The position numbers and the translations under genes were made by a program. Shown here in pieces: positions 2,536 to 39,633 of a DNA stretch of 64,000 bases; positions within the stretch are counted from its first letter, which is position 1, and each line of letters starts with the position of its first letter. The notes under the pieces are model-generated. The model saw only the letters and a list, made by a program, of their open reading frames with translations. It did no database searches and was not told the DNA's origin. Source of the stretch: Candidatus Omnitrophota bacterium (GTDB lineage: Bacteria > Omnitrophota > Gorgyraeia > Gygaellales > Profunditerraquicolaceae). The stretch covers positions 7,773 through 71,772 of the forward strand of contig JAQTQJ010000008.1 of the NCBI GenBank assembly GCA_028712255.1, read 5' to 3'.

Positions 2536-2587
2536 GGGGACGGTTCTATTTTTCTTCTCTTCAATTAAGAAAAATAGAACCGTCCCC
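2536..2587. repeat. AT-rich perfect palindrome GGGGACGGTTCTATTTTT..AAAAATAGAACCGTCCCC (family i), likely bidirectional terminator/REP-like element
   Basis: perfect inverted repeat seen in sequence between pgi and dus; same motif recurs 7 more times in window. Confidence 0.85.
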
Positions 2588-2596
2588 TTTATTATT

Positions 2597-3565
2597 ATGT
2601 TAAAAATTGGTAAATTAAAACTTGAATCTAATTTAATTTTAGCTCCGATGGCTGGAATTACGGATTTAGCGTATCGGTTACTTTGTCGTAAATTTGGCGC
2701 GGAGCTTACTTTTGTAGAAATGATTAATTGTCGGTCAGTTAGTTTTAAGAGCAAAAGAACTAAGCAGATGCTTTCGACTGTGCCTAAAGATAAGCCTTTA
2801 GGTCTGCAAATATTAGGATGTGAAGAGCAGTATATTTTAAAATCCTTGGAAATTCTAAGAAATTACAAATTTGATATTTTAGATTTTAACGCAGCATGCC
2901 CGGCAAAGAAAGTTGTGCGCAGAGGAGAAGGCTCAGGATTGTTACGCGAGCCTGAAAAATTCGCTAAATTGTTAAAATTAGTGGTGAAGAACTCCTGGCT
3001 TCCGGTAAGCGTGAAGATTCGTTTGGGATGGGATAAGAATTCCGTTAATGCCATAGAGATCGCTTTACTTGCCCAGGATTGCGGAGCAGATGCCTTATTT
3101 ATCCATGGTCGCACCAAAACTCAGGGCTATAGCGGACAAGTAGATTACAAAATAATTGGAGAAGTTAAGAAAGCTTTGTATATACCACTGATTGCCAGTG
3201 GAGATGTTTTTTCTGCACTGTTAGCTAAAAAAATGTTGGATGAAACTGGATGCGATGGCCTGGCGATTGCCCGGGGTTCTTTGGGTAACCCTTGGATATT
3301 TAAAGAGATAAAAGAATATTTAGAGAATGGTAAAATTATTAATCGGCCCAAGGAAAGCGAGATTGCTAGGGTCATGTTGGAACATTTAGGCTCCTGTGTT
3401 GATTTTTACGGAGAAAGAAAGGGAGTGGTAATCTTTCGTAAATTTTACACCTGGTATACCAAGGGTTTAGTTAAGGTGCGCCGTTTAAGAGAGAAATCTT
3501 CGCGTGTAAAAACTAAAATAGAGGTGGAAGAAATTATTTCAGAGGCTTTTAAGAAATATATTTGA
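2597..3565 (+). CDS. dus: tRNA-dihydrouridine synthase
   Basis: 322 aa; LAPMAGITD..FVEM N-terminal Dus signature, TIM-barrel flavoenzyme pattern. Confidence 0.88.
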   Translation: MLKIGKLKLESNLILAPMAGITDLAYRLLCRKFGAELTFVEMINCRSVSFKSKRTKQMLSTVPKDKPLGLQILGCEEQYILKSLEILRNYKFDILDFNAACPAKKVVRRGEGSGLLREPEKFAKLLKLVVKNSWLPVSVKIRLGWDKNSVNAIEIALLAQDCGADALFIHGRTKTQGYSGQVDYKIIGEVKKALYIPLIASGDVFSALLAKKMLDETGCDGLAIARGSLGNPWIFKEIKEYLENGKIINRPKESEIARVMLEHLGSCVDFYGERKGVVIFRKFYTWYTKGLVKVRRLREKSSRVKTKIEVEEIISEAFKKYI

Positions 3566-3753
3566 TAATAAAGATAAATTTCTTGCTATTTATTATTAAA
3601 AATAGTAGAATTAAAATAGATGTGAGTCTGTGGATAAACGTATCATAACATAGTACCCCGCGCTAATAGCACCTGGCCTTAAAGGAATTGGGTCAGTGTT
3701 CGCCTGGTGGCGAAGAATTGTGCGGGTATGCCCTTGTGGGCAAGGAGGTGGTT

Positions 3754-3816
3754 ATGAGCTGTGGATCATGCGGACCAAAGAAACCAAAGAAAAAAGCAAA
3801 GAAGAAAAAGAAATAA
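3754..3816 (+). CDS. tiny Lys-rich peptide MSCGSCGPKKPKKKAKKKKK (20 aa), hypothetical
   Basis: AGGAGG Shine-Dalgarno 6 nt upstream of ATG; followed immediately by strong hairpin terminator; no homolog recognised. Confidence 0.35.
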   Translation: MSCGSCGPKKPKKKAKKKKK

Positions 3817-3823
3817 GTTTTAA

Positions 3824-3860
3824 GGGGCAGATCGATAATTTTTGATCTGCCCCTTGTTTT
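3824..3860 (+). terminator. rho-independent terminator GGGGCAGATCgataatttttGATCTGCCCC + T tract
   Basis: 10-bp perfect stem followed by TTGTTTT. Confidence 0.7.
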
Positions 3861-3872
3861 CTAGGAGGCCAA

Positions 3873-4730
3873 ATGCCCAGAACAATAACTTTCAAAGACT
3901 CACCCCTAACTTTAGTGGGAAGGGTTTTAAAAACCGAAACTTTCGCCCCGAATTTTATGGTTATTTCACAGGATTTAAAAGAGGTTAATTATTCGGATTT
4001 TTCAGGTAAAATAAAAATAATCGCTTCATTCCCATCTTTGGATACGCCGGTATGCGATTTACAGGTTAAAGAGTTTAATAAAAGAGCCTCTCAAATATCT
4101 TCAGAAGTAGTAATTTTGGGAATCAGTAAAGATTTACCTTTTGCCCAGAAGCGATTTTGTTCAATGAATGAAATCAAAAACGAAATTGTGTTATCTGATT
4201 ATAAATATTCTTCTTTCGGCATAAATTACGGCTTGCTTATTAAGGAATTAAATCTTTTAGCCAGGTCTGTTTTTATTGTAGATAAAAATGATGCCATTAG
4301 ATATATTCAAATCGTTGGGGAGTTAACTAATCCTCTTGATTATGAAGATGTCCTGAAGAACTTGGATACTGTAATTAAAAAACCGACACTTCCTTTAAAT
4401 AAGACGGCTTTACCTTCTAAATGTATTCCTTGTGAAGGTAAAGTTTTGCCATTACCTAAAGATAAAATAGAAGCAATGTTAGCTCAATCCCACGGTTGGG
4501 AATTAGTAGACGATAAAAAAATAGTTAAAGAATTTAAATTTGTAGATTTTATCGAAGCAAAATATTTTCTGGATCTTGTATCAGCTATCGCCCAGGACCA
4601 GGGGCACCATCCTACACTGACCTTAATTTATAATAAATTAAAAGTTACCCTGACTACGCACGTAGCCGGCGGCCTAACCGAGAATGATTTTATTATGGCG
4701 GGTATTATTAATGAGCTGGGGATAGCTTAG
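3873..4730 (+). CDS. tpx: thiol peroxidase (Tpx, atypical 2-Cys peroxiredoxin) fused to pterin-4a-carbinolamine dehydratase (PCD/DCoH) domain
   Basis: N-terminal 170 aa with SLDTPVC peroxidatic-Cys motif of Tpx; C-terminal 110 aa with E-x3-HHP..Y..H PCD signature (QDQGHHPTLTLIYNKLKVTLTTH). Confidence 0.8.
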   Translation: MPRTITFKDSPLTLVGRVLKTETFAPNFMVISQDLKEVNYSDFSGKIKIIASFPSLDTPVCDLQVKEFNKRASQISSEVVILGISKDLPFAQKRFCSMNEIKNEIVLSDYKYSSFGINYGLLIKELNLLARSVFIVDKNDAIRYIQIVGELTNPLDYEDVLKNLDTVIKKPTLPLNKTALPSKCIPCEGKVLPLPKDKIEAMLAQSHGWELVDDKKIVKEFKFVDFIEAKYFLDLVSAIAQDQGHHPTLTLIYNKLKVTLTTHVAGGLTENDFIMAGIINELGIA

Positions 4731-4731
4731 T

Positions 4732-6401
4732 ATGAACGATTTTTCTGTGCTTATTGGAGGCAAAGCAGGTTTTGGCATTGATAAATCCGCCACAGTAATA
4801 GGGGCAATCTTTAATCAACTTAGTTATCGCACCTATATCTACCGTGATTATCCTTCTCTTATCAGAGGAGGTCATAGCTTTTCCATTGTTCGCCTTTCAC
4901 AGGAAAGAATCGCCACCCATAAAGAAAAAATAGATTTTATTCTTGCTCTAAATCAGGATACCTTCAACTTTCATAAAAATAGAGCTAATGATAATTGTGT
5001 GATTATCTATGATTCAGATACGGTTAAAATAGAGGGAGCGCCAGCCAATGCTCAGCTTCAGGGGATTTCTGTATCAAAGATTATAAAAGAAGAGAATGCA
5101 AATGAGATAATGCTAAATAGTTGCATAATCGGCGCGCTTGTAAAAGCCTCCGGAGTAAATTGGCATGTCCTAGATAGTATTTTTAGAAAAGAGTTTACCA
5201 AAGAGACCGATCTTAATTTAAAGGTTGCACGCCGTGGTTTTGATGAAGCAAAGGAATTTAAAAAGATAGAACCTTTATCGCAGAATATCCTTCCCTTGTC
5301 TACCGGTAATCAAGCAGTAGGCTTGGGTTTAATTAAAGGTGGGCTTAAGGCGTATATATCTTATCCAATGACTCCAACATCTCCTATTTTACATTTTCTG
5401 GCAGAAATTGCTCTTGAGCATCACCTAAAGGTTCTTCATCCGGAAAGCGAAATCGGAGTAATCCTTATGGCCTTAGGGTTTTCTTATATGGGAGAGAAAG
5501 TTGCCGTAGGCACAAGTGGTGGTGGATTTTGTTTGATGACTGAGGGTTTAAGTTTTGCGGGAATGAGCGAGTTGCCTGTTGTAATTGTCGTCGGCCAGCG
5601 GCCGGGACCTTCAACCGGGTTACCTACATATTCTGCGCAAACCGATCTATATTTTGTCTTAAGTGCCGGCCAGGGAGAATTTACGCGTTTTGTTGTCGCT
5701 CCTGGAGATACGGAGGAGGCATATTTCTGGTCGGCTACTGCCATGAATATGAGCTGGGAATATCAGGTGCCTTCAATTATACTTACCGATAAAAATTTAG
5801 GAGAAGGGCTTTTTAATTTTGATATAAATTCTGTATCTCAAATAAAAGAAGCGGTGTCCTTATCGTGGGATGGAAAATCTCCTTACAAAAGATATCAGGA
5901 TACAGAAAATGGAGTTTCTCCTTTGGCTTTTGCTCTCGCTAAAGATGCGGTTATTAAAGTTAACAGTTACGAACATGATGAGTATGGTATAACTACTGAA
6001 GATCCTAAATTGACTATATCGATGCAGAATAAACGTCTGCGTAAGGAAAAATATTTAGCGCAGGAGCTTGATAAGATCGAAACCGTCAAAGTTTACGGAA
6101 ATGAAAATTCTGATGTTAGCCTGCTTTGCTGGGGGTCGAATAAAGGGGTTTGTATTGAGGCGGCTAACAACCTGGGTTTAAAAGTTATCCAGCCTTTAGT
6201 GTTATCTCCATTTCCAATAAAACAATTCCAAAAAGCTTTGGAAAGAACGAAAAAGTTAATTTCTATAGAGAATAATGCTACGGCTCAGCTGGGGCGCTTG
6301 ATTAAAACATTCGGCTTTAATGTGGACCAGAATATTCTAAAATATGATGGGCGTCCTTTTTCTTTGGATGAGCTGGAAGAGTTAATAAAAGGAACTATAC
6401 G

Positions 6402-6405
<4 letters not shown>
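4732..6405 (+). CDS. 2-oxoacid:ferredoxin oxidoreductase, alpha subunit (KorA/OFOR alpha-type)
   Basis: 557 aa; pyruvate/2-oxoglutarate ferredoxin oxidoreductase alpha-gamma fused architecture; start is 2 nt after the tpx fusion stop, stop overlaps beta subunit start by 4 nt. Confidence 0.8.
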
Positions 6406-7193
<788 letters not shown>

Positions 7194-7222
7194 TCGCGTT
7201 TGTTATCGTATAGGATAAATTT

Positions 7223-7663
7223 ATGAATGAATATTTAAAAGTTGCTATAGAGCAAGCAAGGGCAGGGTTAAAAGAAGGTGGTATCCCAGTAGGGTCGGTT
7301 CTTGTTTATGCTGGTAAAATAATTGGCCGTGGGCATAACCGACGCGTTCAAAAAAATAGCGTAATTTTGCATGCTGAAATGGATGCTTTAGAAAATGCCG
7401 GCCGCCTGCCACTAGCTGTATATAAACAATGCATACTATACACGACGCTTTCTCCCTGTGCTATGTGTTCGGGAGCGATAATTCTTTATCAGATCCCGCG
7501 CGTGGTTATTGGAGAAAATAAGACATTTATGGGGCAAGAAAAGCTTTTGCAGGCAAGAGGAGTGCAGTTGGAAGTTTTACAGGATGAAACTTGTATTGGA
7601 CTTATGAGGAGTTTTGTTCAGGGTAATTCGAAGCTTTGGAATGAGGATATTGGCTCAGAATAA
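7223..7663 (+). CDS. CMP/dCMP-type zinc deaminase (TadA-like nucleoside/tRNA adenosine deaminase)
   Basis: 146 aa; HAEMDAL ... SPCAMCSGA zinc-binding motifs. Confidence 0.75.
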   Translation: MNEYLKVAIEQARAGLKEGGIPVGSVLVYAGKIIGRGHNRRVQKNSVILHAEMDALENAGRLPLAVYKQCILYTTLSPCAMCSGAIILYQIPRVVIGENKTFMGQEKLLQARGVQLEVLQDETCIGLMRSFVQGNSKLWNEDIGSE

Positions 7664-7737
7664 AAGCCCAAGACTCTTAAATTACTTGCAATTTTAAAAA
7701 TAAAGAGGATAATCAATTTTTATACAAAGGAGGGAGT

Positions 7738-8049
7738 ATGGGAAAGAAAAATTTGGTAGTTATTGCAATTGTGTTAATAATTTTAGTTGTTACTATTGGT
7801 ATTGCCTATCAAAGCTATGGATATGTGAAATTAATGAAAAAACAGGTTGATACATTAAATGGCGTAATTGAGCAAAAGGATGTTGAGATAGCCAAGCTTA
7901 CTCAAGAAATAGAGGTAAAGGAAGATGAGCTAAGCAGTGTTAAAGCACAACTGGATACCGTAAAAAAAATAACCAGTGAAGCCAATGTACAAATCAATAA
8001 AGTTATTGAGCAGCCAGTTGTTCAAGAGTCTCAACCTCTTACTAAATAA
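7738..8049 (+). CDS. hypothetical membrane-anchored coiled-coil protein
   Basis: 103 aa; N-terminal TM helix (VVIAIVLIILVVTIGIA) then heptad-like K/E-rich segment; good RBS; strong terminator follows. Confidence 0.5.
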   Translation: MGKKNLVVIAIVLIILVVTIGIAYQSYGYVKLMKKQVDTLNGVIEQKDVEIAKLTQEIEVKEDELSSVKAQLDTVKKITSEANVQINKVIEQPVVQESQPLTK

Positions 8050-8071
8050 AGAATAAAGTAAAACAAAAAAG

Positions 8072-8096
8072 CCCCGATTGTTTCCGGGGTTTTTTG
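8072..8096 (+). terminator. rho-independent terminator CCCCGattgtttcCGGGG + T7
   Basis: seen in sequence. Confidence 0.75.
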
Positions 8097-8220
8097 TAGG
8101 TGATAGGCCTAATAGCTTTCGCTATCCTTACTAGCCTCCTGTTATGTGCGTTTCTCTCACCTTCTAAATGAAGTATGCCATATAAATATCTAAATTTCAA
8201 GTCCCATCCAAAAATATATT

Positions 8221-8275
8221 GGGACCGTTTCTATTTTTTTATATTTTTAAAATAGTAAAAAATAGAAACGGTCCC
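8221..8275. repeat. AT-rich palindrome family i copy (GGGACCGTTTCTATTTTT..AAAAATAGAAACGGTCCC)
   Basis: perfect 18-bp arms upstream of recG. Confidence 0.85.
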
Positions 8276-8300
8276 TGATTTTATATAGTATAATAATCTT

Positions 8301-10376
8301 ATGCAAAACACCTCAATTCAATATCTTAAAGGCGTCGGGCCAAAACGCGCCAAAAGCTTTCTTACCCGCGGTATAGAGAGTATTGAGGATCTGTTATATT
8401 ATTTTCCGCGCCGCTATGAAGACCGTACAAATTTTGCCAGCATTTCTAAGCTTAAAGATGGCCAAATTTATACCATAAAAGCTCAGGTTTTGGCTGCAGG
8501 CCAGCATAATTCCTGGCGCAGGCGTTCATTTAGTATTACCGAAGCAGTGCTTGGGGACAATACTGGGAAAATCTCTTGTGTTTGGTTTAATCAGCCATAT
8601 CTTAAATCGTATCTTTTGCCCGGTGCGTCGATGATTCTTTATGGAAAAGTCCAGCGGTATAATGCCAAGTTGCAGATGAGCAACCCGGAATTTGAATTTA
8701 TTGACAGTCAGGAAGATTCTTTAAATGCAGGTAGGATTGTTCCGGTTTATACTTTGCCGCAGGGTTTTAGTCAGCGCAGTATGCGCTATTTAATCAAGAG
8801 TACCCTTGAGGAGTTTCTGCCGAAAGTTAATGATGCTTTACCTTTTGATTTACGTTCTCGTAACAATTTAATTAATCTGGCAGAGAGTCTGCTAAATATC
8901 CATTTCCCGAAAGATCTGGATTTGCAGAAGCAGGCGCACAGGCGTTTAAGTTTCGAAGAGTTTTTTATTTTCCAGCTACCGCTTGTTTTAAGAAAGCTAA
9001 GCCGTAAAGAGAAAAAAGGCATCCCTCACATTGTCGAAGGTAAATTGAACGAAGATTTTATTTTTAATCTGCCTTTTAAGTTGACCAGTGCTCAAGCTAA
9101 GGCCTTGACGGAAATAAAAGCGGATATGGCAGTATCCCAAGCCATGCAACGGCTCCTGCAAGGAGACGTAGGGTCAGGCAAAACTGTAGTGGCTACTTTA
9201 GCTTGTTTAATTGCCATTCAAAGCGGTTATCAGGCAGCATTTATGGCGCCCACAGAGATACTGGCTCGCCAGCATTATGAAAAAATATCTTTGCAGCTAG
9301 CCAAGTTAAATTTTTCCGGCCGAAATTTAAAGGTAGGTTTATTAGTTGGGCAGGATAAGCAGAAGGAAAAAATATATCGGGATTTAAAAGAGGGAAGGAT
9401 TGATTTGATTATTGGCACACATGCCTTGCTGCAGGAAGAATTAATTTTTAAGAATTTGAGTTTCATAGTTATTGATGAGCAGCACAAATTTGGCGTAGGC
9501 CAAAGAGCGCTTTTGCCTAAGAAAGGAAATAATCCAGATGTTTTGATTATGACCGCAACCCCGATTCCGCGCACTCTGGCGATTACTCTTTATGGTGATT
9601 TGGATATTTCTGTAATTAATGAACTTCCTGCCGGCAGAATCCCGATCAAAACAATGCATTTTGAGCAGAAAAACATTCAAAAAGCTTACGCTATTGTTAA
9701 GGAGGAGCTAAAATACGGCCGACAGGCTTATGTAATATATCCGGTAATTGAAGAATCCTATGCTTTGGATATTGCCGGAGCCAAGAAAATGTTTGCAGAA
9801 CTTAAATCAAAAGAATTTAAAGATTTCAAACTCGGGCTAATCCATGGCCAACTAAAAACAAAAGAGCAGGATGAAATCATGCTTAAGTTTAAAAATAGGG
9901 AGCTGGATCTTTTGGTCTCAACCACTATTTTAGAAGTAGGTATTGACATTGCCAATGCTACCTGTATGATTATTGATTTTGCGGAACGTTTTGGCTTAAG
10001 CCAACTGCATCAGTTGCGTGGTAGAATAGGTAGAGGAAAGTTACAGTCATTTTGTATGTTAATTTCCGACGCCCAAAGCCAGGAGGCAGCTGCCCGCATG
10101 CAAGCAATGGTAGCTTCAGGGGATGGTTTTCGTATTTCAGAAGAGGATTTAAAGATTAGGGGGCCAGGTGAATTTTTTGGCAGTAGGCAACATGGCTTGG
10201 CTGAGTTAAAGATTGCTAATCCCCTGACGCAAATGCAGCTGCTTAAAGCGGCCAGAGACGAAGCTATTGCTTTACTTAAACAAGATTCTCGGTTAGAGGA
10301 TCGTTCGCACCAATTATTAAAGGCAAAGCTTCTTCAGAGATTCCCGGAGTATGAGAAACTGATGTTAGTGGGGTAA
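8301..10376 (+). CDS. recG: ATP-dependent DNA helicase RecG
   Basis: 691 aa; wedge domain, DVGSGKT Walker A, DEQH box, RGRIGRG motif VI. Confidence 0.92.
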   Translation: MQNTSIQYLKGVGPKRAKSFLTRGIESIEDLLYYFPRRYEDRTNFASISKLKDGQIYTIKAQVLAAGQHNSWRRRSFSITEAVLGDNTGKISCVWFNQPYLKSYLLPGASMILYGKVQRYNAKLQMSNPEFEFIDSQEDSLNAGRIVPVYTLPQGFSQRSMRYLIKSTLEEFLPKVNDALPFDLRSRNNLINLAESLLNIHFPKDLDLQKQAHRRLSFEEFFIFQLPLVLRKLSRKEKKGIPHIVEGKLNEDFIFNLPFKLTSAQAKALTEIKADMAVSQAMQRLLQGDVGSGKTVVATLACLIAIQSGYQAAFMAPTEILARQHYEKISLQLAKLNFSGRNLKVGLLVGQDKQKEKIYRDLKEGRIDLIIGTHALLQEELIFKNLSFIVIDEQHKFGVGQRALLPKKGNNPDVLIMTATPIPRTLAITLYGDLDISVINELPAGRIPIKTMHFEQKNIQKAYAIVKEELKYGRQAYVIYPVIEESYALDIAGAKKMFAELKSKEFKDFKLGLIHGQLKTKEQDEIMLKFKNRELDLLVSTTILEVGIDIANATCMIIDFAERFGLSQLHQLRGRIGRGKLQSFCMLISDAQSQEAAARMQAMVASGDGFRISEEDLKIRGPGEFFGSRQHGLAELKIANPLTQMQLLKAARDEAIALLKQDSRLEDRSHQLLKAKLLQRFPEYEKLMLVG

Positions 10377-10381
10377 TTATC

Positions 10382-10924
10382 ATGCGCATAACTACAGGAA
10401 AATACCGAAATTTTAAGATATACATGCCTAGAGGTATTCGGCCTACCCAGGATAAAGTACGTAAGGCGGTATTTGATATACTGGGGGATATCAGTGGTTT
10501 GACATTTTTAGAGCTTTATGCCGGTTCGGGGGCGGTCGGCTTGGAGGCACTTTCCCGCGGTATCAGCGCTTTAACCATGGTTGAGAGTAATCGAGATTCC
10601 ATATTAGCCATAAAAAAGAATCTTGCGTTGCTTAGGGTTCCTGATTGTAATCTGTATCATTTGGAGGCAGAAAAAGGGGTTAAGCTTTTGGCTCGGGATA
10701 AAAAATTCTTTGATATAATATTCATTGATCCGCCGTACCACCTGGATATGGCAAAAAAAATCTTGCAAACGCTTGAAGGTTATGATATATTAGCGCCTCA
10801 TGGTTTAATAGTTGCGCAGCATTTTAAGTCGGAATTATTGCCAATAGAAAATTCAATTTTTAGTTTAATTAAAGAAGCCAAGTATGGAGATACCTGGCTT
10901 TCAATTTTCAGGAAGAAAGAATAA
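10382..10924 (+). CDS. rsmD: 16S rRNA (guanine966-N2)-methyltransferase RsmD
   Basis: 180 aa; LELYAGSGAVGLEALSRG SAM motif and DPPY catalytic motif. Confidence 0.85.
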   Translation: MRITTGKYRNFKIYMPRGIRPTQDKVRKAVFDILGDISGLTFLELYAGSGAVGLEALSRGISALTMVESNRDSILAIKKNLALLRVPDCNLYHLEAEKGVKLLARDKKFFDIIFIDPPYHLDMAKKILQTLEGYDILAPHGLIVAQHFKSELLPIENSIFSLIKEAKYGDTWLSIFRKKE

Positions 10925-12010: not shown

Positions 12011-12027
12011 TCAAATAAGTGTTGCAA

Positions 12028-12058
12028 TAGGGACTGTCCCCGGAGGGGACTGTCCCTA
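12028..12058 (+). terminator. near-perfect hairpin atagGGACTGTCCCCggaGGGGACTGTCCCtat
   Basis: 15-bp arms with one mismatch immediately after rpmF stop; related GGGGACTGTCC motif again at 14135 after fabH. Confidence 0.55.
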
Positions 12059-12106
12059 TTGTTAATAAGGCAACCAAAAGTATGCTTTAATAGCAGGAGT
12101 TAAAGA

Positions 12107-15153: not shown

Positions 15154-15171
15154 TTTTAAAAGGAGAATAAC

Positions 15172-17554: not shown

Positions 17555-17599
17555 GGGGACGGTTCTCTTTTTTAAATTTTGAAAAAGAGAACCGTCCCC
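17555..17599. repeat. AT-rich palindrome family i copy
   Basis: GGGGACGGTTCTCTTTTTT..AAAAAGAGAACCGTCCCC after fabF. Confidence 0.85.
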
Positions 17600-20627: not shown

Positions 20628-20680
20628 GGGGACGGTTCTATTTTTTACTATTTTTTAAATATAAAAATAGAACCGTCCCC
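20628..20680. repeat. AT-rich palindrome family i copy
   Basis: GGGGACGGTTCTATTTTTT..AAAATAGAACCGTCCCC after leuB. Confidence 0.85.
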
Positions 20681-29339: not shown

Positions 29340-29340
29340 G

Positions 29341-29400
29341 ACTTAAGCCGTAAGCTATAAGCCGTAAGTTTTAAGCTTATAACTTACAGCTTACAACTTA
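29341..29400. repeat. TAAGCT-heptad imperfect hairpin (family iii)
   Basis: taagccgtaagctataagccgtaag tttt aagcttataacttacagcttacaactta between argF and argG. Confidence 0.6.
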
Positions 29401-29426
29401 TTTTAGGTTTAGAATTTAAGACAGCA

Positions 29427-30608: not shown

Positions 30609-30621
30609 TGAAAGTTTTTTC

Positions 30622-30703
30622 CGTCATCCTGAGCCCGGAGGGCGAAGGATCTAGATTCTTCGTCACCCGCCACTGAATCAATGGCGGGTTCCTCAGAATG
30701 ACG
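30622..30703. repeat. GC-rich MITE-like element family ii copy B (inverted relative to copy A)
   Basis: CGTCATCCTGAG..GAAGGATCTAGATTCTTC..CCCGCCActgaatcaaTGGCGGG..CTCAGAATGACG between argG and argH. Confidence 0.8.
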
Positions 30704-30737
30704 AAATTATAAAGAGAGGATACAGGGGGGGATAAGA

Positions 30738-32123: not shown

Positions 32124-32131
32124 AAAATAAT

Positions 32132-33370
32132 ATGCACGATTTTAAATATAAGGGAAATAATTTTTATTGCGAGAATGTAAGAGTTGAGGAATTGGCTGGC
32201 CGTTTCGGTACGCCTCTTTATGTTTATAGCTATAAAACTCTTACGGATCACTATAAAAAACTAAAATCCGCATTTGCCAGAATTAATCCGCTTATCTGTT
32301 ATTCTGTAAAAGCAAATTCAAATCTATCGATATTAAAAGCCTTAGTAGCAAAGGGTGCCGGTTTGGATATTGTTTCAGGAGGCGAGCTTTTTCGTGCTCT
32401 TAAAGTTGGGTGTCCTGCGCAAAGAATAGTTTATGCTTCTGTGGGTAAAACCGATAATGAAATTACTGCGGCTTTATCAAAAGGTATTTTATTTTTTAAT
32501 GTCGAATCACTTGCCGAGCTAGAGAATATTAACCGCATATCGGGCAGGCTTAAAAAAAATACCCGCGTGGCTATTCGCATTAATCCTGACGTAGAGGCTA
32601 AAACTCATAAATATGTTACTACGGGAAAAATTACGAATAAATTCGGGATTGATTTAGGCAGCGCTTACTCGATTCTGCTAATGCGCTCTAAATTTAAAAA
32701 TTTAAATATTTGCGGTTTGCATATTCATATTGGATCACAGATTACCGATAGCGCTCCATTTGAGGCCGCGATCAAAAAAATATCGGATTTTATTCTGCGC
32801 CTGGAGCATAAAGGAATCTGCCTAGAATATTTAAATATCGGTGGAGGTATGGGTATTATTTATGACCGTGAAACTCCGCAAACTGCCCAGATCTACGCTG
32901 GGAAAATCATTCCGCTTTTAGAGAAAACCGGGCTTAAAATAATTATGGAACCGGGAAGGTTTATTGTTGGCAATGCCGGAATTCTGGTTACAAAAATTTT
33001 ATATATTAAGCATACTCCGAAAAAGAAATTTATCATCGTAGATGCTGGAATGAATGATTTGATTCGTCCTGCGCTGTACTCTGCGTATCATAATATTCTG
33101 GCTTTGCATAAAAATTTAAAAACTGAGAAAGCTGATGTGGTCGGCCCCATTTGTGAAAGCGGTGATTTTTTAGCCAAAGAACGGCTTGTTCCAAAAGTTA
33201 AAGAAGGGAATTATTTAGTAGTGATGGGGGCGGGGGCATATGGTTTCAGTATGTCCAGTAATTATAACTCACGTTTGCGTCCTGCAGAGATTATGGTAAA
33301 TGGGAATAATGTATCTATAATTTGTAAAAGAGAGAATTTTGAGGATTTAGTTCGAAATGAAAAAACTTAA
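32132..33370 (+). CDS. lysA: diaminopimelate decarboxylase
   Basis: 412 aa; YSVKAN PLP-Lys motif, alanine-racemase-like fold II decarboxylase. Confidence 0.88.
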   Translation: MHDFKYKGNNFYCENVRVEELAGRFGTPLYVYSYKTLTDHYKKLKSAFARINPLICYSVKANSNLSILKALVAKGAGLDIVSGGELFRALKVGCPAQRIVYASVGKTDNEITAALSKGILFFNVESLAELENINRISGRLKKNTRVAIRINPDVEAKTHKYVTTGKITNKFGIDLGSAYSILLMRSKFKNLNICGLHIHIGSQITDSAPFEAAIKKISDFILRLEHKGICLEYLNIGGGMGIIYDRETPQTAQIYAGKIIPLLEKTGLKIIMEPGRFIVGNAGILVTKILYIKHTPKKKFIIVDAGMNDLIRPALYSAYHNILALHKNLKTEKADVVGPICESGDFLAKERLVPKVKEGNYLVVMGAGAYGFSMSSNYNSRLRPAEIMVNGNNVSIICKRENFEDLVRNEKT

Positions 33371-34142
33371 TTTTACCAAGATGGTTGGTTCAGGGAATGA
33401 TTTTGTTGTGATTAATGATAGTCGCCTGGGGAATTTATCTGTATTAGCTAGGAGATTGTGTGATAGAAAATTTGGTATCGGAGCTGATGGCCTGCTTATA
33501 TTGGGGAAATCTAAAAAAGCTAACATCAGTATGAGAATATTTAATGCTGATGGATCAGAAGCGCAGATGTGTGGTAATGGAGCTCGCTGCGCTGTTTTAT
33601 TTAGTGGTAAGAAAAAACTTAAACTCGATACTGGCGCCGGAATAATAAATGGTCAAGTTTATGGGGATTGTGTAAAGATTCAGATTACTGACCCCAAAAA
33701 TATAAAATTAGATATTCCTATAAAAGTAAATGGTAGGTTAATAAGAGTAAATTTTATTGATACTGGTGTTCCGCATGTGGTAGTTTTTGTAAACGGTATC
33801 GATTGTATTAATGTGAACCATATTGGTTGGATTATTCGAAATCATATAAAATTTTCCCCTAAAGGCACAAATGTAAATTTTGTAGAAGTAAAGGGTAATA
33901 ATCTTATTCAGATTCGTACCTATGAGAGGGGAGTAGAGGGTGAGACTCTGGCTTGTGGCACAGGAAGTACTGCTTGCGCTTTAATTTTTGCTTTAAAAAA
34001 TAATCTGGATGATTTAGTTAAGGTTAAGACGCAGGGTAGCGAGATTCTGAAGGTTCATTTTCAGAGAACTGTTTGTAAATTTAGCGATGTTTGGTTGGAA
34101 GGCAGCGCAAAAATAGTCTACAAAGGAGAATATTATGTTTAA
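33357..34142 (+). CDS. dapF: diaminopimelate epimerase
   Basis: 261 aa; MVGSGNDFVVI start, two catalytic Cys regions (QMCGNGARC, ACGTGSTA). Confidence 0.88.
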   Translation: MKKLNFTKMVGSGNDFVVINDSRLGNLSVLARRLCDRKFGIGADGLLILGKSKKANISMRIFNADGSEAQMCGNGARCAVLFSGKKKLKLDTGAGIINGQVYGDCVKIQITDPKNIKLDIPIKVNGRLIRVNFIDTGVPHVVVFVNGIDCINVNHIGWIIRNHIKFSPKGTNVNFVEVKGNNLIQIRTYERGVEGETLACGTGSTACALIFALKNNLDDLVKVKTQGSEILKVHFQRTVCKFSDVWLEGSAKIVYKGEYYV

Positions 34143-35043
34143 GGGCTCAATCGTAGCCATAGTCACGCCGTTTTCCGCCAAAGGCGGATCCGCCTCCGGA
34201 GGGAAAAATCTAAAGGTGGATGAAAAGAAATTGCGTGAGCTTATTGATTTTCAGATTAAAAACGGTACCAGCGGTATCGTGCCTTGCGGGACTACCGGTG
34301 AAAGTGCAACTTTAAATTTTGATGAACATGAGTCCGTAATTCAGATTACTATTGACCAGGTTAAAAAAAGAGTCCCAGTAATCGCCGGAACCGGTTCAAA
34401 TTCTACTGAAGAAGCAATTATGCTTACTAAACAAGCAGCTAGTTCCGGCGCTAGCGCTTCTTTACAGGTTAGCCCATATTATAACCGTCCTACACAAAAA
34501 GGTTTATATGAACATTTTAAAGCAATTGCTCAGTCGGTAAAAATTCCGATCATCCTTTATAATATTGCAGGACGCACTGGAGTAAACATTGAGCCGGAAA
34601 CAATTGCAAAATTAGCCAATGATTGTAAAAATATTGTGGCGGTAAAAGAGGCATCTGCAAGTCTTGACCAGATGTCGCGGATAAAGCAGCTCTGCCCAAA
34701 AGATTTTGATTTGATTTCAGGGGATGACGGTTTAACATTACCGGTGTTAAGTATTGGAGGCACCGGAATAATTTCCGTAGTTGCCAATATTGTCCCAAAA
34801 GATGTTGCGGATTTAGTTTCTGCTTTTGAAAAAGGGGATATTAAAGCATCCAGGAAATTACATTATAAGTTATTACCTTTAATTAAAGCGGTATTTCTAG
34901 AGACTAATCCTATACCGATTAAAACAGCAATGGGTTTATTGGGGATGTGCCAATCGGATTTGCGTCTTCCGATGTGTAGCATGTCGGAGAGTAATTTGGA
35001 GAAGCTTAAAAAAGCTTTAAGGGATTATGGTCTTTTAAAATAA
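34135..35043 (+). CDS. dapA: 4-hydroxy-tetrahydrodipicolinate synthase
   Basis: 302 aa; GTTGES, YNRP and KEA Schiff-base Lys motifs. Confidence 0.9.
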   Translation: MFKGSIVAIVTPFSAKGGSASGGKNLKVDEKKLRELIDFQIKNGTSGIVPCGTTGESATLNFDEHESVIQITIDQVKKRVPVIAGTGSNSTEEAIMLTKQAASSGASASLQVSPYYNRPTQKGLYEHFKAIAQSVKIPIILYNIAGRTGVNIEPETIAKLANDCKNIVAVKEASASLDQMSRIKQLCPKDFDLISGDDGLTLPVLSIGGTGIISVVANIVPKDVADLVSAFEKGDIKASRKLHYKLLPLIKAVFLETNPIPIKTAMGLLGMCQSDLRLPMCSMSESNLEKLKKALRDYGLLK

Positions 35044-35050
35044 AAAACAT

Positions 35051-35096
35051 GGGACCGTTTCTATTTTTCTAAATTTATAAAAATAGAAACGGTCCC
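35051..35096. repeat. AT-rich palindrome family i copy
   Basis: GGGACCGTTTCTATTTTT..AAAAATAGAAACGGTCCC after dapA. Confidence 0.85.
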
Positions 35097-35117
35097 AAGA
35101 TTCTCGTTTTTGGAGGA

Positions 35118-35831
35118 ATGATGATAAAAATAGGGATTGCAGGAGCCTGTGGAAAAATGGGCAGGCGTATTTTTGAGCTTGCCGGATTTGATAAGGATCT
35201 GGAGGTGGCTTTTCTTCTTGAGAAAAAAGGTACTTCTTTGATTGGTAGAGATATGGGAAAATTAAAAGTTTCATCTAATCCGGATGGTTTATTCCTGGTT
35301 GATGCATTGATCGACTTTACTTTGCCTGAAGCAACTGATGAACATTTAGATTATGTTGCTAGATATAAAAAAGCACTTGTTTTGGGAACTACAGGATTAA
35401 CTGATACCCAAAAAAATAAGATAGAAGAGGTTTCTAAGGTTGTTCCGATAGTTTTTTCACCGAATATGTCAATCGGCGTAAATGTCTTGTTTTCATTTCT
35501 CCCTGAAATAGCTAAAAAATTGGGCCCGGATTATAGCGTAGAGATTGTGGAAGCACATCATAAAGCTAAAAAAGATGCGCCTAGCGGTACGGCAAAGAAG
35601 TTAGCCGAGGTTATCACTCAAGTTACTAAAAAAGATATTCCCATGCATTCCATTCGTTTAGGTGATATCTTTGGAGATCATACGGTTATCTTTTGCGGTA
35701 TTTCTGAGCGTATAGAGATAAAGCATCAGGCGCATTCACGCGATTTGTTTGCTGTCGGGGCACTAAAAGCAGTCAAATGGATTATCGGTAAACCTGCAGG
35801 ATTATATTCTATGCAGGATGTTTTAAAATAA
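35118..35831 (+). CDS. dapB: 4-hydroxy-tetrahydrodipicolinate reductase
   Basis: 237 aa; GIAGACGKMGRR NAD motif, EAHHKAKKDAPSGTA signature. Confidence 0.9.
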   Translation: MMIKIGIAGACGKMGRRIFELAGFDKDLEVAFLLEKKGTSLIGRDMGKLKVSSNPDGLFLVDALIDFTLPEATDEHLDYVARYKKALVLGTTGLTDTQKNKIEEVSKVVPIVFSPNMSIGVNVLFSFLPEIAKKLGPDYSVEIVEAHHKAKKDAPSGTAKKLAEVITQVTKKDIPMHSIRLGDIFGDHTVIFCGISERIEIKHQAHSRDLFAVGALKAVKWIIGKPAGLYSMQDVLK

Positions 35832-35838
35832 AAAACAA

Positions 35839-35882
35839 GGGACCGTTTCTATTTTTTAAATTTAAAAAATAGAAACGGTCCC
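35839..35882. repeat. AT-rich palindrome family i copy, followed by tandem CGGGATTTC x2
   Basis: seen after dapB. Confidence 0.85.
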
Positions 35883-35917
35883 GGGATTTCCGGGATTTCG
35901 ACATCGAGGAGTGTTCA

Positions 35918-37078
35918 ATGTTTAAAGTTTCAAATAAACTAAATTTTCTTCCACCTTATTTGTTTTTAGAGATTGATAAAGCCAAGCGTCAGGCGCGCGC
36001 CGAAGGCAGGGATATCATTGACCTAGGAATAGGTGATCCTGACCAGCCGACTCCAAAATTCATTATTGAAGCTCTAAATCTGGCTGCGCAGGATTCGGCC
36101 AACCATCGTTATGCTTTAGATCAAGGTATGCCGGTATTACGCAGCGCAATCGCAGGTTGGTATAAGCGTAGGTTTAATGTTGATTTAAATCCGGATACAG
36201 AAGTTTTACCACTGATTGGTTCAAAAGAGGGTATTGCGCATTTTCCTTTAGCTTTTCTAAATCAAGGGGACGTTTCCCTTGTTCCTGATCCGTGCTACCC
36301 TCCGTATAAAGGCGGAACAATTCTGGCAGGAGGTAGGCCTTATCTTTTACCGTTGTTGGCATCAAATTCATTTCTTCCCGATTTAAGCAAAATTTCATTT
36401 TTTACTCGTAAAAAAGCAAAAATAATATTTGTTAATTATCCGAATAATCCAACTGGCGGTTGTGCAAGTGATGATTTTTATAAGCAACTTATCGAATTTT
36501 CCGTCAAAAATAAAATCATAATTATTTCGGATTTAGCTTATTCGGAAATGGCTTATGATGGATATAAACCGCCTAGCTTACTAGAGTTTTCAGGAGCAAA
36601 AGAAACTGTGATCGAGTTTCATTCTTTGTCAAAAACTTATAATATGACTGGTTGGCGCATCGGATGGGCATGTGGCAATTCTGCTTTAGTTGGCGCATTA
36701 GCAAAGGTAAAATCCAATATCGATTCGGGAATATTTTCCGCTATCCAACTTGCTGGAGTTAGAGCTTTAGAAGGGCCACAGGATTATTTAAAATCAATGT
36801 GTGCGCTCTATCAGCAGAGAAGGGATATTTTAGTCGAAGGACTTAATTCTTTAGGTTGGCAGGTAATGAAACCAAAAGCGACATTTTATGTTTGGATTAA
36901 AGTTCCGCCGCAGGAGAGTTCCATAAGTTTTGCTGGACGACTCTTAAAAGATGTTAATATTGTGGTGACTCCAGGAACAGGGTTTGGTAAATATGGGGAA
37001 GGTTATATTCGTATGGCTTTAACTGTTTCTGTTGAGAGGGTTAAAGAGGCTTTAGAGCGCATAAAGAAGATTACTTAA
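35918..37078 (+). CDS. dapL: LL-diaminopimelate aminotransferase (DapL-type class I aminotransferase)
   Basis: 386 aa; N-terminal YLFLEI..GIGDPDQPTP pattern characteristic of DapL; NYPNNPTG, SLSKTYNMTGWRIG PLP-Lys; sits at end of dapFAB cluster. Confidence 0.7.
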   Translation: MFKVSNKLNFLPPYLFLEIDKAKRQARAEGRDIIDLGIGDPDQPTPKFIIEALNLAAQDSANHRYALDQGMPVLRSAIAGWYKRRFNVDLNPDTEVLPLIGSKEGIAHFPLAFLNQGDVSLVPDPCYPPYKGGTILAGGRPYLLPLLASNSFLPDLSKISFFTRKKAKIIFVNYPNNPTGGCASDDFYKQLIEFSVKNKIIIISDLAYSEMAYDGYKPPSLLEFSGAKETVIEFHSLSKTYNMTGWRIGWACGNSALVGALAKVKSNIDSGIFSAIQLAGVRALEGPQDYLKSMCALYQQRRDILVEGLNSLGWQVMKPKATFYVWIKVPPQESSISFAGRLLKDVNIVVTPGTGFGKYGEGYIRMALTVSVERVKEALERIKKIT

Positions 37079-37479
37079 TGGTTATTTGTTATATTGGTGT
37101 TGGAACAAATTTGGGCTCTCGTATGAAGAATATAAAATTGGCAATTAAAAAGATTGGCGCTCTTAAAGATACCCGAATAACTAAAATATCAAGATTTTTT
37201 GAATTTGCTTCTGTTGGAGGCCCGGCTGGCCAGAGTAATTATTATAATGCCGCATTAAAAATCCAGACTAAATTTTCCCCTATAAATTTATTAAAAAAAT
37301 TAAAAGAAATTGAAAATGAGCTAGGTCGTACTCGAGGCGTGCGTTTTGGCCCCAGAGTGATTGATTTAGATGTTTTGCTTTATGGGGATAAGTTTATAGA
37401 AAGTAAAAGATTAACTGTCCCGCATCCGCGTATGTTTAAGCGTGATTTTGTAATTAAACCGTTAAAAGAGGTTTTATGA
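37078..37479 (+). CDS. folK: 2-amino-4-hydroxy-6-hydroxymethyldihydropteridine pyrophosphokinase
   Basis: 133 aa; GPRVIDLDVLLYGD and PHPRM motifs. Confidence 0.88.
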   Translation: MVICYIGVGTNLGSRMKNIKLAIKKIGALKDTRITKISRFFEFASVGGPAGQSNYYNAALKIQTKFSPINLLKKLKEIENELGRTRGVRFGPRVIDLDVLLYGDKFIESKRLTVPHPRMFKRDFVIKPLKEVL

Positions 37480-38360
37480 GGGTTATAACTGATCCGCAGA
37501 AATTAAATAATGAAATTAAGAAAACCAAGCGTAGCGGTAGGACAGTTGGTTTTGTTCCCACAATGGGGGCTTTACATCTTGGGCATTTAAGCCTTATTAA
37601 ACAGGCAGCCAAGGATAATGATTTTATTATAGTGAGTATATTTGTTAATCCTACTCAATTTGGTCCGAATGAGGATTTAAAAAAATATCCTCATCCACTT
37701 AAGAATGACCTTCAATTATGTTCTAAGGCAGGAGTGAATTTAGTTTTTCTGCCGAATGCTAAAATTATGTATCCAGAAGGTTTTTCTACTTTTGTTAATG
37801 TCGAGGGATTAAGCAGTGTTCTTTGTGGAGCATCTAGGCCCGGGCATTTTCGAGGGGTTACCACCGTTGTAGCTAAGTTGCTCAATATTGTTGAGCCAGA
37901 CCTGCTTTACCTGGGGCAGAAAGACGCCCAGCAGGCAGCTATTATCGGCAGAATGGTTAAAGATTTAAACTTTCCAGTTAAGGTAAAAGTTATGCCTATT
38001 GTGCGCGAGCCTGATGGCTTAGCGGTCAGTTCTCGCAATCACTATTTAAGTAAAGATCAAAGAATATACGCCAAAGTTTTATTTAAGTCTTTATCCTTGG
38101 CAAAGTCTTTAATTGATAATGGCCAGCGTGATTGCGTAAGGTTAGTCAGTAGGATGAGGCAGCTTATTGACAAGAAGAAACAGGTAAAAATTGATTATAT
38201 TGCGATAGTTGATCCAATAAATCTTAAACCGCTTAAGCGAATTTTCGGGAATTGTTTAGTTGTTTTAGCCGTATATATAGGCAAGACAAGGTTGATAGAT
38301 AATCTAGTCATTCTGAGGGAGTCCGCCACTAAACCAATGGCGGACGCCCGAAGAATCTAG
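37476..38360 (+). CDS. panC: pantoate-beta-alanine ligase
   Basis: 294 aa; PTMGALHLGHLSL HIGH-type motif; conserved GKTRLIDN near C-terminus, last ~14 codons and stop are provided by repeat element copy C. Confidence 0.88.
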   Translation: MRVITDPQKLNNEIKKTKRSGRTVGFVPTMGALHLGHLSLIKQAAKDNDFIIVSIFVNPTQFGPNEDLKKYPHPLKNDLQLCSKAGVNLVFLPNAKIMYPEGFSTFVNVEGLSSVLCGASRPGHFRGVTTVVAKLLNIVEPDLLYLGQKDAQQAAIIGRMVKDLNFPVKVKVMPIVREPDGLAVSSRNHYLSKDQRIYAKVLFKSLSLAKSLIDNGQRDCVRLVSRMRQLIDKKKQVKIDYIAIVDPINLKPLKRIFGNCLVVLAVYIGKTRLIDNLVILRESATKPMADARRI

Positions 38361-38401
38361 AAACCAGATCCTTCGTCCACCTGCGGCGGACTCAGGATGA
38401 C
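38317..38401. repeat. GC-rich MITE-like element family ii copy C
   Basis: GTCATTCTGAG..TCCGCCActaaaccaaTGGCGGA..GAAGAATCTagaaaccAGATCCTTC..CTCAGGATGAC; overlaps panC 3' end. Confidence 0.8.
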
Positions 38402-38410
38402 AGAGAGATA

Positions 38411-39229
38411 ATGAAAAAATTAAAAATCGGTATTGTAGGATGCGGAGCAATCGGCAGCTCTTTGGCAAAAGAGGTAGTTATTAATTTGCGCAGCTGTGCT
38501 TATTTAGCAGCTATTTATGATATAAAGCCTGAAAAGGCCCAGGTTCTTTCTAGGAAATTGGTAAAAAATGCTAAATTGTGCGTTTCCAATCTTGATACCC
38601 TTATTAAAAAATCGGATTTGGTGATTGAGGCTTCTAGTGCAAAGGCATCTTGGGAGATAGCGCGTAAATCTTTACTAAACGGATGTAAAGTCATGATTAT
38701 GAGTGTAGGAGGCGTAGTTGAGCATTCAGATGAATTGTTTGCTTTAGCCCGAAAATATGAAACTCAGGTATATTTTCCCAGTGGAGCCATCTCTGGTGTC
38801 GATGCTTTAAAGGCTGCTAATATTGCAGGAGTAAAAAGTGTTGTTTTGACTACACGTAAACATCCCGATGCATTTAAGGGAGTAGAATATGTCACAAATA
38901 ATTTTAAACTTTTGGGCCTAAAAAAAGATAAGGTTCTATTTTCAGGAACTGCAGCGCAGGCAGTGAAATATTTTCCGCAAAATATTAATGTTGCCGCGGT
39001 TTTAGGTTTAGCTGCTATCGGCATGCGCAAAACGAAGGTACGTATAATTGCCAGCCCCTTTGTTAGAAGGAATATTCATGAAGTTTTAATTGAATCTAAG
39101 GCTGCAAAGATTTTTACGCGTACCGAGAATGTTTTGCATCCGCAGAATCCCAAGACTTCTTATTTAGCGGTATTATCGGCTATCGCGGCTTTAAGACAAA
39201 TTTTACAACCGGTGAAGATAGGCACTTAA
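38411..39229 (+). CDS. L-aspartate dehydrogenase-like protein (NadX/DUF108 family)
   Basis: 272 aa; MKKLKIGIVGCGAIGS Rossmann start and overall Asp-DH pattern. Confidence 0.7.
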   Translation: MKKLKIGIVGCGAIGSSLAKEVVINLRSCAYLAAIYDIKPEKAQVLSRKLVKNAKLCVSNLDTLIKKSDLVIEASSAKASWEIARKSLLNGCKVMIMSVGGVVEHSDELFALARKYETQVYFPSGAISGVDALKAANIAGVKSVVLTTRKHPDAFKGVEYVTNNFKLLGLKKDKVLFSGTAAQAVKYFPQNINVAAVLGLAAIGMRKTKVRIIASPFVRRNIHEVLIESKAAKIFTRTENVLHPQNPKTSYLAVLSAIAALRQILQPVKIGT

Positions 39230-39236
39230 AAAACAA

Positions 39237-39290
39237 GGGACCGTTTCTATTTTTTACTATTTTTAAAAATTAAAAAATAGAAACGGTCCC
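39237..39290. repeat. AT-rich palindrome family i copy
   Basis: GGGACCGTTTCTATTTTTT..AAAAAATAGAAACGGTCCC. Confidence 0.85.
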
Positions 39291-39324
39291 TAGATTTTCA
39301 CATAGAAAGGGGGTGAGTACAAAG

Positions 39325-39564
39325 ATGGCAGAAAAAGTCGTTAAAGTAGGGGTTAAGAGGGAAAAAGGTTATCTCTATTATATTGACAAGCAGGGTGATG
39401 TTTCTTGCGCCAAGATGAAAAGGGGTACTAAAAAAGGCGGTAGCCCTAAGAAGGTAACCAAGTGTGGTATTAAAAGAAAAGTAGGTTACCTTTATTTCTT
39501 GGACAAGCAGGGTGATGTTTCTTGCGCCAAGATGAAAAGAGGCGGGAAGAAGAAAAAGAAGTAA
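39325..39564 (+). CDS. small basic protein with internal tandem repeat (2 x KxGYLY(Y/F)xDKQGDVSCAKMKRG) and poly-Lys tail, hypothetical
   Basis: 79 aa from ATG after GGGGGTGA RBS; 27-aa unit duplicated at DNA level; flanked on both sides by family i palindromes. Confidence 0.55.
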   Translation: MAEKVVKVGVKREKGYLYYIDKQGDVSCAKMKRGTKKGGSPKKVTKCGIKRKVGYLYFLDKQGDVSCAKMKRGGKKKKK

Positions 39565-39580
39565 TTTATTAGTAAAAAAT

Positions 39581-39633
39581 GGGGACGGTTTTGTTTTTTT
39601 ACTGTTTAAGTTTAAAAAAACAGAACCGTCCCC
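39581..39633. repeat. AT-rich palindrome family i copy (GGGGACGGTTTTGTTTTTTT..AAAAAAACAGAACCGTCCCC variant)
   Basis: seen upstream of uvrA. Confidence 0.8.

Follow-up and report, generated by a model that had tools for sequence, protein, structure and literature searches.

The 64,000-nt stretch analysed here (the window throughout), positions 7,773 to 71,772 of the forward strand of contig JAQTQJ010000008.1 from a Candidatus Omnitrophota bacterium (assembly GCA_028712255.1), carries eight copies of a conserved palindromic repeat, family i, each made of two inverted arms of about 18 nt, similar to repetitive extragenic palindromic (REP) sequences, around a short variable spacer. These doublets are very probably miniature elements of the REP/REPIN type (REPIN, REP doublet forming a hairpin) that belong to the system of a REP-associated tyrosine transposase (RAYT), because the same arms are the inverted repeats flanking a RAYT-type gene in related genomes. 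These arms show a specific and directional association with RAYT-like genes, the flanking repeat diversifies along with the transposase, and the repeats have been gained, lost, swapped and flipped at orthologous intergenic sites. The element is of a known kind, found here in a little-studied lineage, the RAYT hosts being Omnitrophota, Smithellaceae and other uncultured anaerobes.

A search with the 18-mer GGGGACGGTTCTATTTTT, allowing up to three mismatches, retrieved 16 arms from the window, which form eight inverted pairs and nothing more, against a shuffle expectation of 0.06. An earlier sequence-only reading of this DNA had listed eight palindromes with two arm subtypes, and its coordinates and sequences are correct: subtype A (GGGACCGTTTCTATTTTT) is found in the four copies starting at 8221, 35051, 35839 and 39237, and subtype B (GGGGACGGTTCT(A/C/G)TTTTT) in the four at 2536, 17555, 20628 and 39581. 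The sequence GGGACCGTTTC has eight exact matches in the window, that is four inverted pairs, and GGGGACGGTTC accounts for the remaining four pairs.

A RAYT-type gene between inverted family arms

The transposase was found by screening open reading frames (ORFs) bracketed by arms. In an Omnitrophota metagenome-assembled genome (MAG; locus L054) a gene at 5934-6608, placed between arms at 5850 (+) and 6649 (-), encodes a 224-aa protein (P0121) that matches the Pfam Y1_Tnp model (E = 1.4e-15) and has as its best NCBIfam model the REP-associated tyrosine transposase (REP_Tyr_transpos, 68.2 bits; 19.6 bits to IS200). Its best solved relative is the E. coli TnpA_REP (4ER8, E = 3e-6), to which it aligns in the HUH (NHVHLI) and YIERNPV motifs. 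Both the HUH and the Y motif are invariant, a C-terminal GRPKK tail is conserved, and the transposases are 224-237 aa long. The protein has 555 homologues, and members adjoining arms were also found at two other loci (L108 and L067).

Eighty homologous loci were retrieved from metagenome contigs by protein pattern only, the pattern being built on twenty aligned homologues. Family arms lie about 150 nt or nearer to the gene ends in 50 of these loci and on both sides in 34, with a density of 2.96 arms per kb up to 200 nt from the gene versus 0.15 per kb elsewhere (20-fold). Upstream arms are almost always in plus orientation (47 + and 2 -) and downstream arms in minus orientation (42 - and 3 +); the distance most often seen upstream, 52-55 nt ahead of the start codon, accounts for 17 of the 47 arms, and the downstream arms end anywhere from inside the final codons of the gene to some 90 nt beyond it. 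The typical unit reads arm, a sigma-70-like TTGACA with a -10 element, gene and arm, the stop codon being often within the right arm. A REP-like element linked to a REP-associated transposase, one of the two options offered by the sequence-only reading, is therefore supported by a Y1/HUH gene with inverted family arms that recurs in 34 to 50 of the 80 loci, which makes it unnecessary to invoke the other option, a lineage-specific terminator with its own binding protein.

The repeat that flanks the gene varies with the transposase tree (GGGGACGGTTCTATTT, GGGGACGGTTCTCTTTTGA, GGGGACGGTTCC, GGGACCGTTTC, GGGGACGCTTCT, GGGGACGTTCCCC, GGGACACCC), distant RAYTs having the diverged forms GGGGACGCTTCT, GGGGACGGTTCC, GGGGACGTTCCCC and GGGACACCC. 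Subtype A arms flank transposases in L140, L160 and L193, of which L160 belongs to Omnitrophota (72% nucleotide identity to L112), and a subclade with subtype B arms comes, by source names, from Smithellaceae, Smithella, Syntrophus and Nitrospira. The same arm of 16-18 nt is common to transposases just about 45-57% identical and to different phyla.

Further features of these units were noted in passing. A conserved stem (e.g. CCCTCCTTTTACGTCTATTAACAGTAGAAGGAGGG) within the 60-70 nt 5' of the RAYT start in L139, L140, L141, L146, L156 and L160 pairs the GGAGG ribosome-binding site just before the ATG, an arrangement that we take to resemble the translational occlusion of the IS200 tnpA. On the 4.78-Mb contig of L224 (1-13800) the RAYT unit sits amid mobile-element genes, which include several DDE transposases, a group II intron reverse transcriptase, an IS91-type Y2 transposase and an integrase.

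Turnover of the repeats at orthologous sites

The window was compared with syntenic relatives, listed with their RecG identity to it (L001, 91%; L124, 84%; L125, 83%; L002, 82%; the RecG of the window itself has a 100% identical counterpart in a Candidatus Omnitrophota MAG, and Omnitrophota hold hundreds of RecG homologues at 77-93% identity), and with two further orthologous loci present among the motif matches, L036 (window 16.5-23.4 kb) and L114 (30.8-37 kb). Between fabF and leuC, subtype B occupies the site in the window and in L036 and subtype A in L001, while all that remains in L002 is a decayed lone right arm (AAATAGAAACGTCCTC) and the site of L124 is empty, its spacer measuring 14 nt. 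The site upstream of recG holds subtype A in the window and in L001 a variant (GGGACCTGTTC) with compensatory changes on both arms and the spacer flipped; one arm, decayed, is left in L124, and in L125 the site is cleanly empty (AAATT/TTATAGTATAAT). The leuB/asd doublet of the window finds empty counterparts in L124 (15-nt spacer) and L002 (4-nt spacer), the pgi/dusB spacer is of unrelated sequence in L124 and L125, and leuD/leuB has an element in L036 and none in the window. In L114 dapA and dapB overlap by ATGA, the element being absent, and two GGGGACTGTCCCC units stand in place of the doublet between dapB and the next gene. On the other hand, the acpP terminator (AATTTACCCCGC...GCGGGGTAAATT) is conserved in the window and in all four relatives with fetched DNA over this site; as a hairpin it was directly detected, in the same position as in the window, in L001, L002 and L124. 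Filled, empty, swapped and flipped sites therefore rule out simple vertical conservation. The orthologous comparison called for by the sequence-only reading thus yielded presence/absence, subtype and orientation polymorphism, and the conserved terminator that it had named as the refuting outcome was not what emerged.

Another reading would make the doublets classical miniature inverted-repeat transposable elements (MITEs), that is, deletion derivatives of a DDE-type insertion sequence that move by cut-and-paste and leave target-site duplications. The doublets resemble them in having terminal inverted repeats around a short variable core, a modal size of about 55 nt and a copy number that differs between lineages. 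However, no consistent direct target-site duplication was found: the single clean empty/filled comparison leaves at most an ambiguous ATT, and the A-rich and T-rich flanks stand in an inverted, not a direct, relation. Since, in addition, no gene other than a Y1/HUH transposase was found between matching arms, we rejected a DDE-type MITE as a very improbable explanation.

Other palindromes were observed as well. Relatives without family i have repeated palindromes of their own, such as AAATCAGCCCTG... twice in L002 (7339-7368 and 9742-9774) and AATAAGACCCTGTTTCCC...GGGAAACAGGGTCTTATT in L125 (2804-2847), which suggests that palindrome families turn over between Omnitrophota lineages. The window itself holds a second, related type at 12025-12061, where two GGGACTGTCCC units (CAATAGGGACTGTCCCCGGAGGGGACTGTCCCTATTG) lie just 5' of plsX (0.01 expected); the same 13-mer occurs twice in L114 (6725-6790), at the site after dapB. 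Self-complementary units similar to these, e.g. GGGGACGTTCCCC and GGGGACAGGTCCC, flank the more distant RAYT homologues.

Distribution and structure of the family

A scan of one genome per species with GGGRMCKKTTCTATTTTT gave at least 120 loci, and the statistics of the doublets were drawn from 123 fetched genome or assembly loci plus the window. Among the matches listed, paired inward-facing arms occur in many Omnitrophota MAGs, in Smithella, in at least five Aminicenantes assemblies, including the closed 4.35-Mb chromosome CP070750.1 (L088, L099), and in several MAGs labelled Planctomycetales or Eubacteriales (labels as deposited); cultured organisms contributed single matches, at chance level. 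The motif is therefore not confined to the window, which had been raised as a possibility at the outset, but widespread outside it, in host loci of 38 to 67% G+C. No RAYT was found in the Aminicenantes-labelled loci sampled. Plasmid and phage collections held no related sequence and the viral contigs of IMG/VR only 17 single unpaired matches, a number in line with chance that gives no hint of a viral vector. The whole window had no Rfam match at gathering thresholds, and a full-text literature search with the arm sequences returned unrelated primer matches only. As a separate observation, the AT-rich arm GGGGACGTTTCTATTTTT is unchanged in loci of 61-68% G+C, both in Aminicenantes (L016, L039, L070) and in Omnitrophota (L028, L041, L042, L056), which implies either strong sequence constraint or recent arrival.

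The pool comprises 89 doublets with a modal length of 53-58 nt, in which 18 core arm positions are conserved and the spacers are not. Four variable arm positions pair in 96-99% of the doublets versus 54-79% expected, and the left flanks are rich in A and the right ones in T, their pairing exceeding expectation modestly. Most doublets lie within 20 nt of a stop codon, in co-directional (54), convergent (12) or divergent (6) contexts. The spacing between arms ranges from 4 to about 90 nt; lone arms occur, as do tandem half-arms (L098, L101, L103, L107), and the local density reaches eight doublets in 40 kb in the window and up to five in 7.4 kb in L101. In some Omnitrophota such doublets may be the predominant post-gene hairpin.

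A further possibility is that the doublets were never transposed at all. They could be relics of RAYT units after internal deletion, or products of gene conversion or template switching between palindromes, as a RAYT gene between single inward-facing arms looks like a doublet with the gene as spacer. Variable spacers, some of which keep a second CTATTTT motif like that inside the left end of the RAYT unit in L140, and the tandem half-arms would fit such an origin. Nonetheless, most spacers are without similarity to RAYT genes, doublets far exceed RAYT genes in the sampled genome loci (89 versus 6 matches), and insertion of full units into spacers of 4-15 nt followed by precise deletion everywhere is less parsimonious, all of which leaves this origin improbable.

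That the arm is conserved in different phyla and over a G+C range of 38-67%, and that single arms exist, might suggest a signal for binding by a host protein, such as a nucleoid or regulatory factor, or for DNA uptake, with inverted pairs being secondarily selected as terminators like the paired DNA uptake sequences of Neisseria. We give almost no credence to this explanation, given that every arm of the window belongs to an intergenic doublet and none lies within a gene, that the inter-arm spacing is so variable, that the family has been lost from close relatives, where other palindromes occur instead, and that arms are enriched 20-fold, in fixed orientation, at RAYT genes.

Some more specific candidates were tried and rejected. 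The arm misfits the RYYYAAC / GTTRRRY core consensus of integron attC sites, and its neighbours are housekeeping genes in conserved synteny; DNA uptake sequences as such were dismissed because the window has no intragenic or unpaired copies (up to three mismatches), and a transcription-factor operator because of the arm spacing of 4 to 90 nt.

The eight doublets of the window and their gene context

The doublets are the following, the energies being those of the RNA folds:

Doublet 1, 2536..2587: subtype B, GGGGACGGTTCTATTTTT arms, 10-nt spacer; between pgi (stop 2530) and dusB (start 2597); stem of 24 bp counting the AAA/TTT flanks; -37.1 kcal/mol, z -10.6.
Doublet 2, 8221..8275: subtype A, GGGACCGTTTCTATTTTT arms, 17-nt spacer; ends 25 nt 5' of recG; -31.1 kcal/mol.
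Doublet 3, 17555..17599: subtype B, GGGGACGGTTCTCTTTTT arms, 9-nt spacer; between fabF (stop 17549) and leuC (start 17611); -36.7 kcal/mol.
Doublet 4, 20628..20680: subtype B, 17-nt spacer with a second CTATTTT motif at its beginning; between leuB (stop 20613) and asd (start 20703); -31.0 kcal/mol.
Doublet 5, 35051..35096: subtype A, 10-nt spacer; between dapA (stop 35043) and dapB (start 35118); -28.1 kcal/mol.
Doublet 6, 35839..35882: subtype A, 4-nt spacer, 20-bp stem; between dapB (stop 35831) and the LL-diaminopimelate aminotransferase gene (start 35918); -30.7 kcal/mol.
Doublet 7, 39237..39290: subtype A, 14-nt spacer with a second CTATTTT motif at its beginning; between the aspartate dehydrogenase gene (stop 39229) and a small ORF (39313); -29.9 kcal/mol.
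Doublet 8, 39581..39633: subtype B variant, GGGGACGGTTTTGTTTTT / GGGGACGGTTCTGTTTTT; between the small ORF (stop 39564) and uvrA (start 39651); -33.1 kcal/mol.

A general hairpin scan measured perfect stems of 19-24 bp in these eight copies, longer than the 13-19 bp first proposed, around spacers of 4-17 nt that are AT-rich as described. In the copy at 39581 the two arms differ by a single T/C mismatch, and the TGTTTTT variant that it carries is also present in the Omnitrophota MAGs L060, L080 and L087. The energies of the RNA folds lie between -28 and -37 kcal/mol (z-scores -7.3 to -10.6). Each doublet has an A-run at one flank and a T-run at the opposite one, and doublets 5, 6 and 7 have in common the left flank TAAAAAACA, stop codon included. 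The arms start with GGGGAC or GGGACC and have no internal complementarity, so that a single arm forms no hairpin of its own; CGTC of subtype B is paired inside the long stem and is missing in subtype A. By direct reading of the few clear cases, the second CTATTTT motif points one way in about seven copies and the opposite way in one, numbers too small to establish an orientation bias.

All ORFs within the first 42 kb, including every ORF flanking a copy, are on the plus strand, and the copies therefore lie between co-directional genes and not between convergent ones as had been claimed. They begin 5-16 nt past a stop codon, except the copy at 8221 (171 nt), and end 9-35 nt ahead of the next start, all 16 arms being intergenic and paired. 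The genes of this part of the window are ordinary housekeeping genes (pgi, dusB, recG, the fab cluster, leuCDB, asd, dapA, dapB, the LL-diaminopimelate aminotransferase gene, folK, panC, nadX and uvrA), and those next to the copies are in conserved synteny. Several copies are probably inside operons, and the earlier view that they mark operon boundaries does not hold for all of them: the dapA/dapB copy sits where L114 has ATGA-overlapping genes. As a promoter would not fit into 9-35 nt, the genes that follow, dapB for example, must rely on read-through, and termination at those sites therefore cannot be complete. Copies 1 and 8 have a good U-tract after the stem, copies 2, 3, 4 and 7 a moderate one and copies 5 and 6 a poor one, and a simple terminator scan (loops up to 8 nt) flags copy 3 only.

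Very stable hairpins just past stop codons, many of them with A-rich upstream and T-rich downstream sequence and one of them flagged by the scan, are also what ordinary Rho-independent terminators would look like if kept similar by vertical descent and selection with no mobility. Such terminators would hardly account for an identical 18-mer at eight unrelated loci of the window and in other phyla, nor for sites that are empty or of the other subtype in close relatives whereas the acpP terminator is conserved, nor for copies with poor U-tracts in likely operons, e.g. CCC-AAGAUUCUCG after dapA; besides, the arms flank a transposase gene. We therefore regard this explanation as extremely improbable. 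Bidirectional intrinsic terminators are similar to the doublets in their stable G+C-based stem, their A-tract and T-tract and their post-stop position, and differ from them in the same respects: identity across loci and phyla, presence/absence polymorphism, the link to a transposase and weak U-tracts within operons.

Proposed mechanism and comparison with known systems

By analogy with the E. coli TnpA_REP and the TnpA of IS200/IS605 (PMC3479197, PMC6006769), it can be envisaged that a RAYT encoded elsewhere in this genome recognises the doublet hairpin in single-stranded DNA and would cleave and rejoin at the hairpin foot, which would copy, exchange or flip doublets. Copies may persist in short post-stop spacers because insertions are tolerated there. 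Once transcribed, the hairpin (-28 to -37 kcal/mol, with a U-rich tail) could act as a terminator, an attenuator or a stabiliser of the mRNA 3' end. E. coli REPs at about 15 nt or less from a stop codon can lower translation of the upstream gene, and by analogy the spacing of 5-16 nt found here would allow a similar effect.

Several observations weigh against the assignment of the doublets to the REP/REPIN type. The L054 protein falls below the curated NCBIfam cutoff for RAYTs (68 versus 80 bits). The 64-kb window has no RAYT gene, and the cognate enzyme for this genome is therefore assumed. Two long contigs of the subclade with subtype B arms, L223 and L224 (1.3 Mb and 4.78 Mb), have gene and arms with no other doublets within 20 kb, so the presence of the gene is no guarantee of proliferation. 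Mismatches between arms on the sense strand are without bias (18 G.U versus 14 A.C) and thus give no direct sign of selection at the RNA level. The arms lack the classical GTAG tag, and a single arm forms no hairpin. Finally, the spacers vary in sequence and length between copies, unlike classical REPINs, which are copied as fixed units; the doublet may therefore not be the copied unit, and the unit of transposition may be either the single arm or the doublet.

Even so, the resemblance to the REPIN-RAYT/TnpA_REP systems of Pseudomonas fluorescens and E. coli (PMC3116915, PMC3337134, PMC5581495, PMC3479197) is extensive. Common to both are inverted extragenic units with a spacer that form a long hairpin, a location mostly just 3' of genes, single units that look like decayed doublets, an HUH/Y1 gene between the same repeats in inverted orientation, co-diversification of repeat and transposase and turnover between related genomes. 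The family described here departs from them in its arm, which has neither a 5' GTAG tetranucleotide nor a hairpin of its own, in spacers that vary between copies where classical ones are copied with the unit, in a longer transposase (224-237 aa, with the GRPKK tail) that lies below the curated RAYT threshold, and in an arm common to several phyla where classical REPs are species- or genus-specific. REPIN-RAYT systems are described as being passed on vertically for the most part and as mainly gammaproteobacterial in PMC5581495 and in the RAREFAN preprint, and patchy horizontal spread of tnpA_REP genes has been favoured by another study (PMC6006769). A plausible, though tentative, suggestion is that the present family represents a REPIN-RAYT lineage that moves between phyla, or one with an unusually frozen recognition sequence; if true, this would challenge the view of REPIN-RAYT systems as lineage-specific and vertically inherited.

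RAYT genes between long terminal inverted repeats and moderately abundant repeat families have already been reported for some RAYTs by Di Nocera et al. 2013 (PMC3733652), who described RAYT-like genes in inverted repeats unrelated to GTAG REPs, with dispersed copies. Their hosts were cultured Proteobacteria and a few other phyla, whereas the arm and the phyla considered here are not described there, and the family of the window differs as well in its high local density (8 in 40 kb) and in that most of its copies are perfect doublets. With IS200/IS605 the system has in common a Y1 HUH transposase, hairpins in single-stranded DNA and no target-site duplication. However, the ends of IS200/IS605 are two different subterminal hairpins and not identical inverted arms, and the protein matches the IS200 model weakly (19.6 bits) and TnpA_REP better.

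Our findings extend REP/REPIN-RAYT systems, earlier known almost entirely from Proteobacteria, to uncultured candidate phyla (Omnitrophota, Aminicenantes) and to Smithellaceae. They provide a concrete pair of repeat and enzyme open to in vitro work, the arm GGGGACGGTTCTATTTTT with the 224-aa P0121, and the conservation of the arm over phyla and G+C contents offers a handle on horizontal spread and on how a RAYT constrains its target. They also matter for the annotation and binning of MAGs, since dense perfect palindromes break assemblies, yield spurious small ORFs and mimic terminators.

Other features of the window

Doublets 7 and 8 bracket a small ORF with internal repeats, as previously noted: the 83-codon ORF at 39313-39564 (+) is very basic and consists of two repeats of about 38 residues (…KxGYLY(Y/F)(I/L)DKQGDVSCAKMKRGxKK…), with no match in Pfam or NCBIfam. 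On the minus strand at 8060-8215, 5' of recG, a non-coding stretch of about 150 nt is kept in L001, L124, L125 and L002, and its minus-strand end is formed by a clean terminator (CCCCGGAAACAATCGGGGCTTTTTT). The stretch has the look of a small RNA gene; the region 8040-8300 compared with Rfam at E up to 1 returned generic hairpin and microRNA-precursor matches only.

The region 40000-64000 is without family i arms although its genes are equally dense and co-directional, and the G+C content of the window drops to 33-36% beyond about 44 kb. There, one and the same small palindrome, TATTAAATA...TATTTAATA, comes after each of two tandem ORFs of 130 codons (53292-53684 and 53751-54143; hairpins at 53679-53710 and 54138-54170), which suggests a recent tandem duplication of a gene plus its hairpin.

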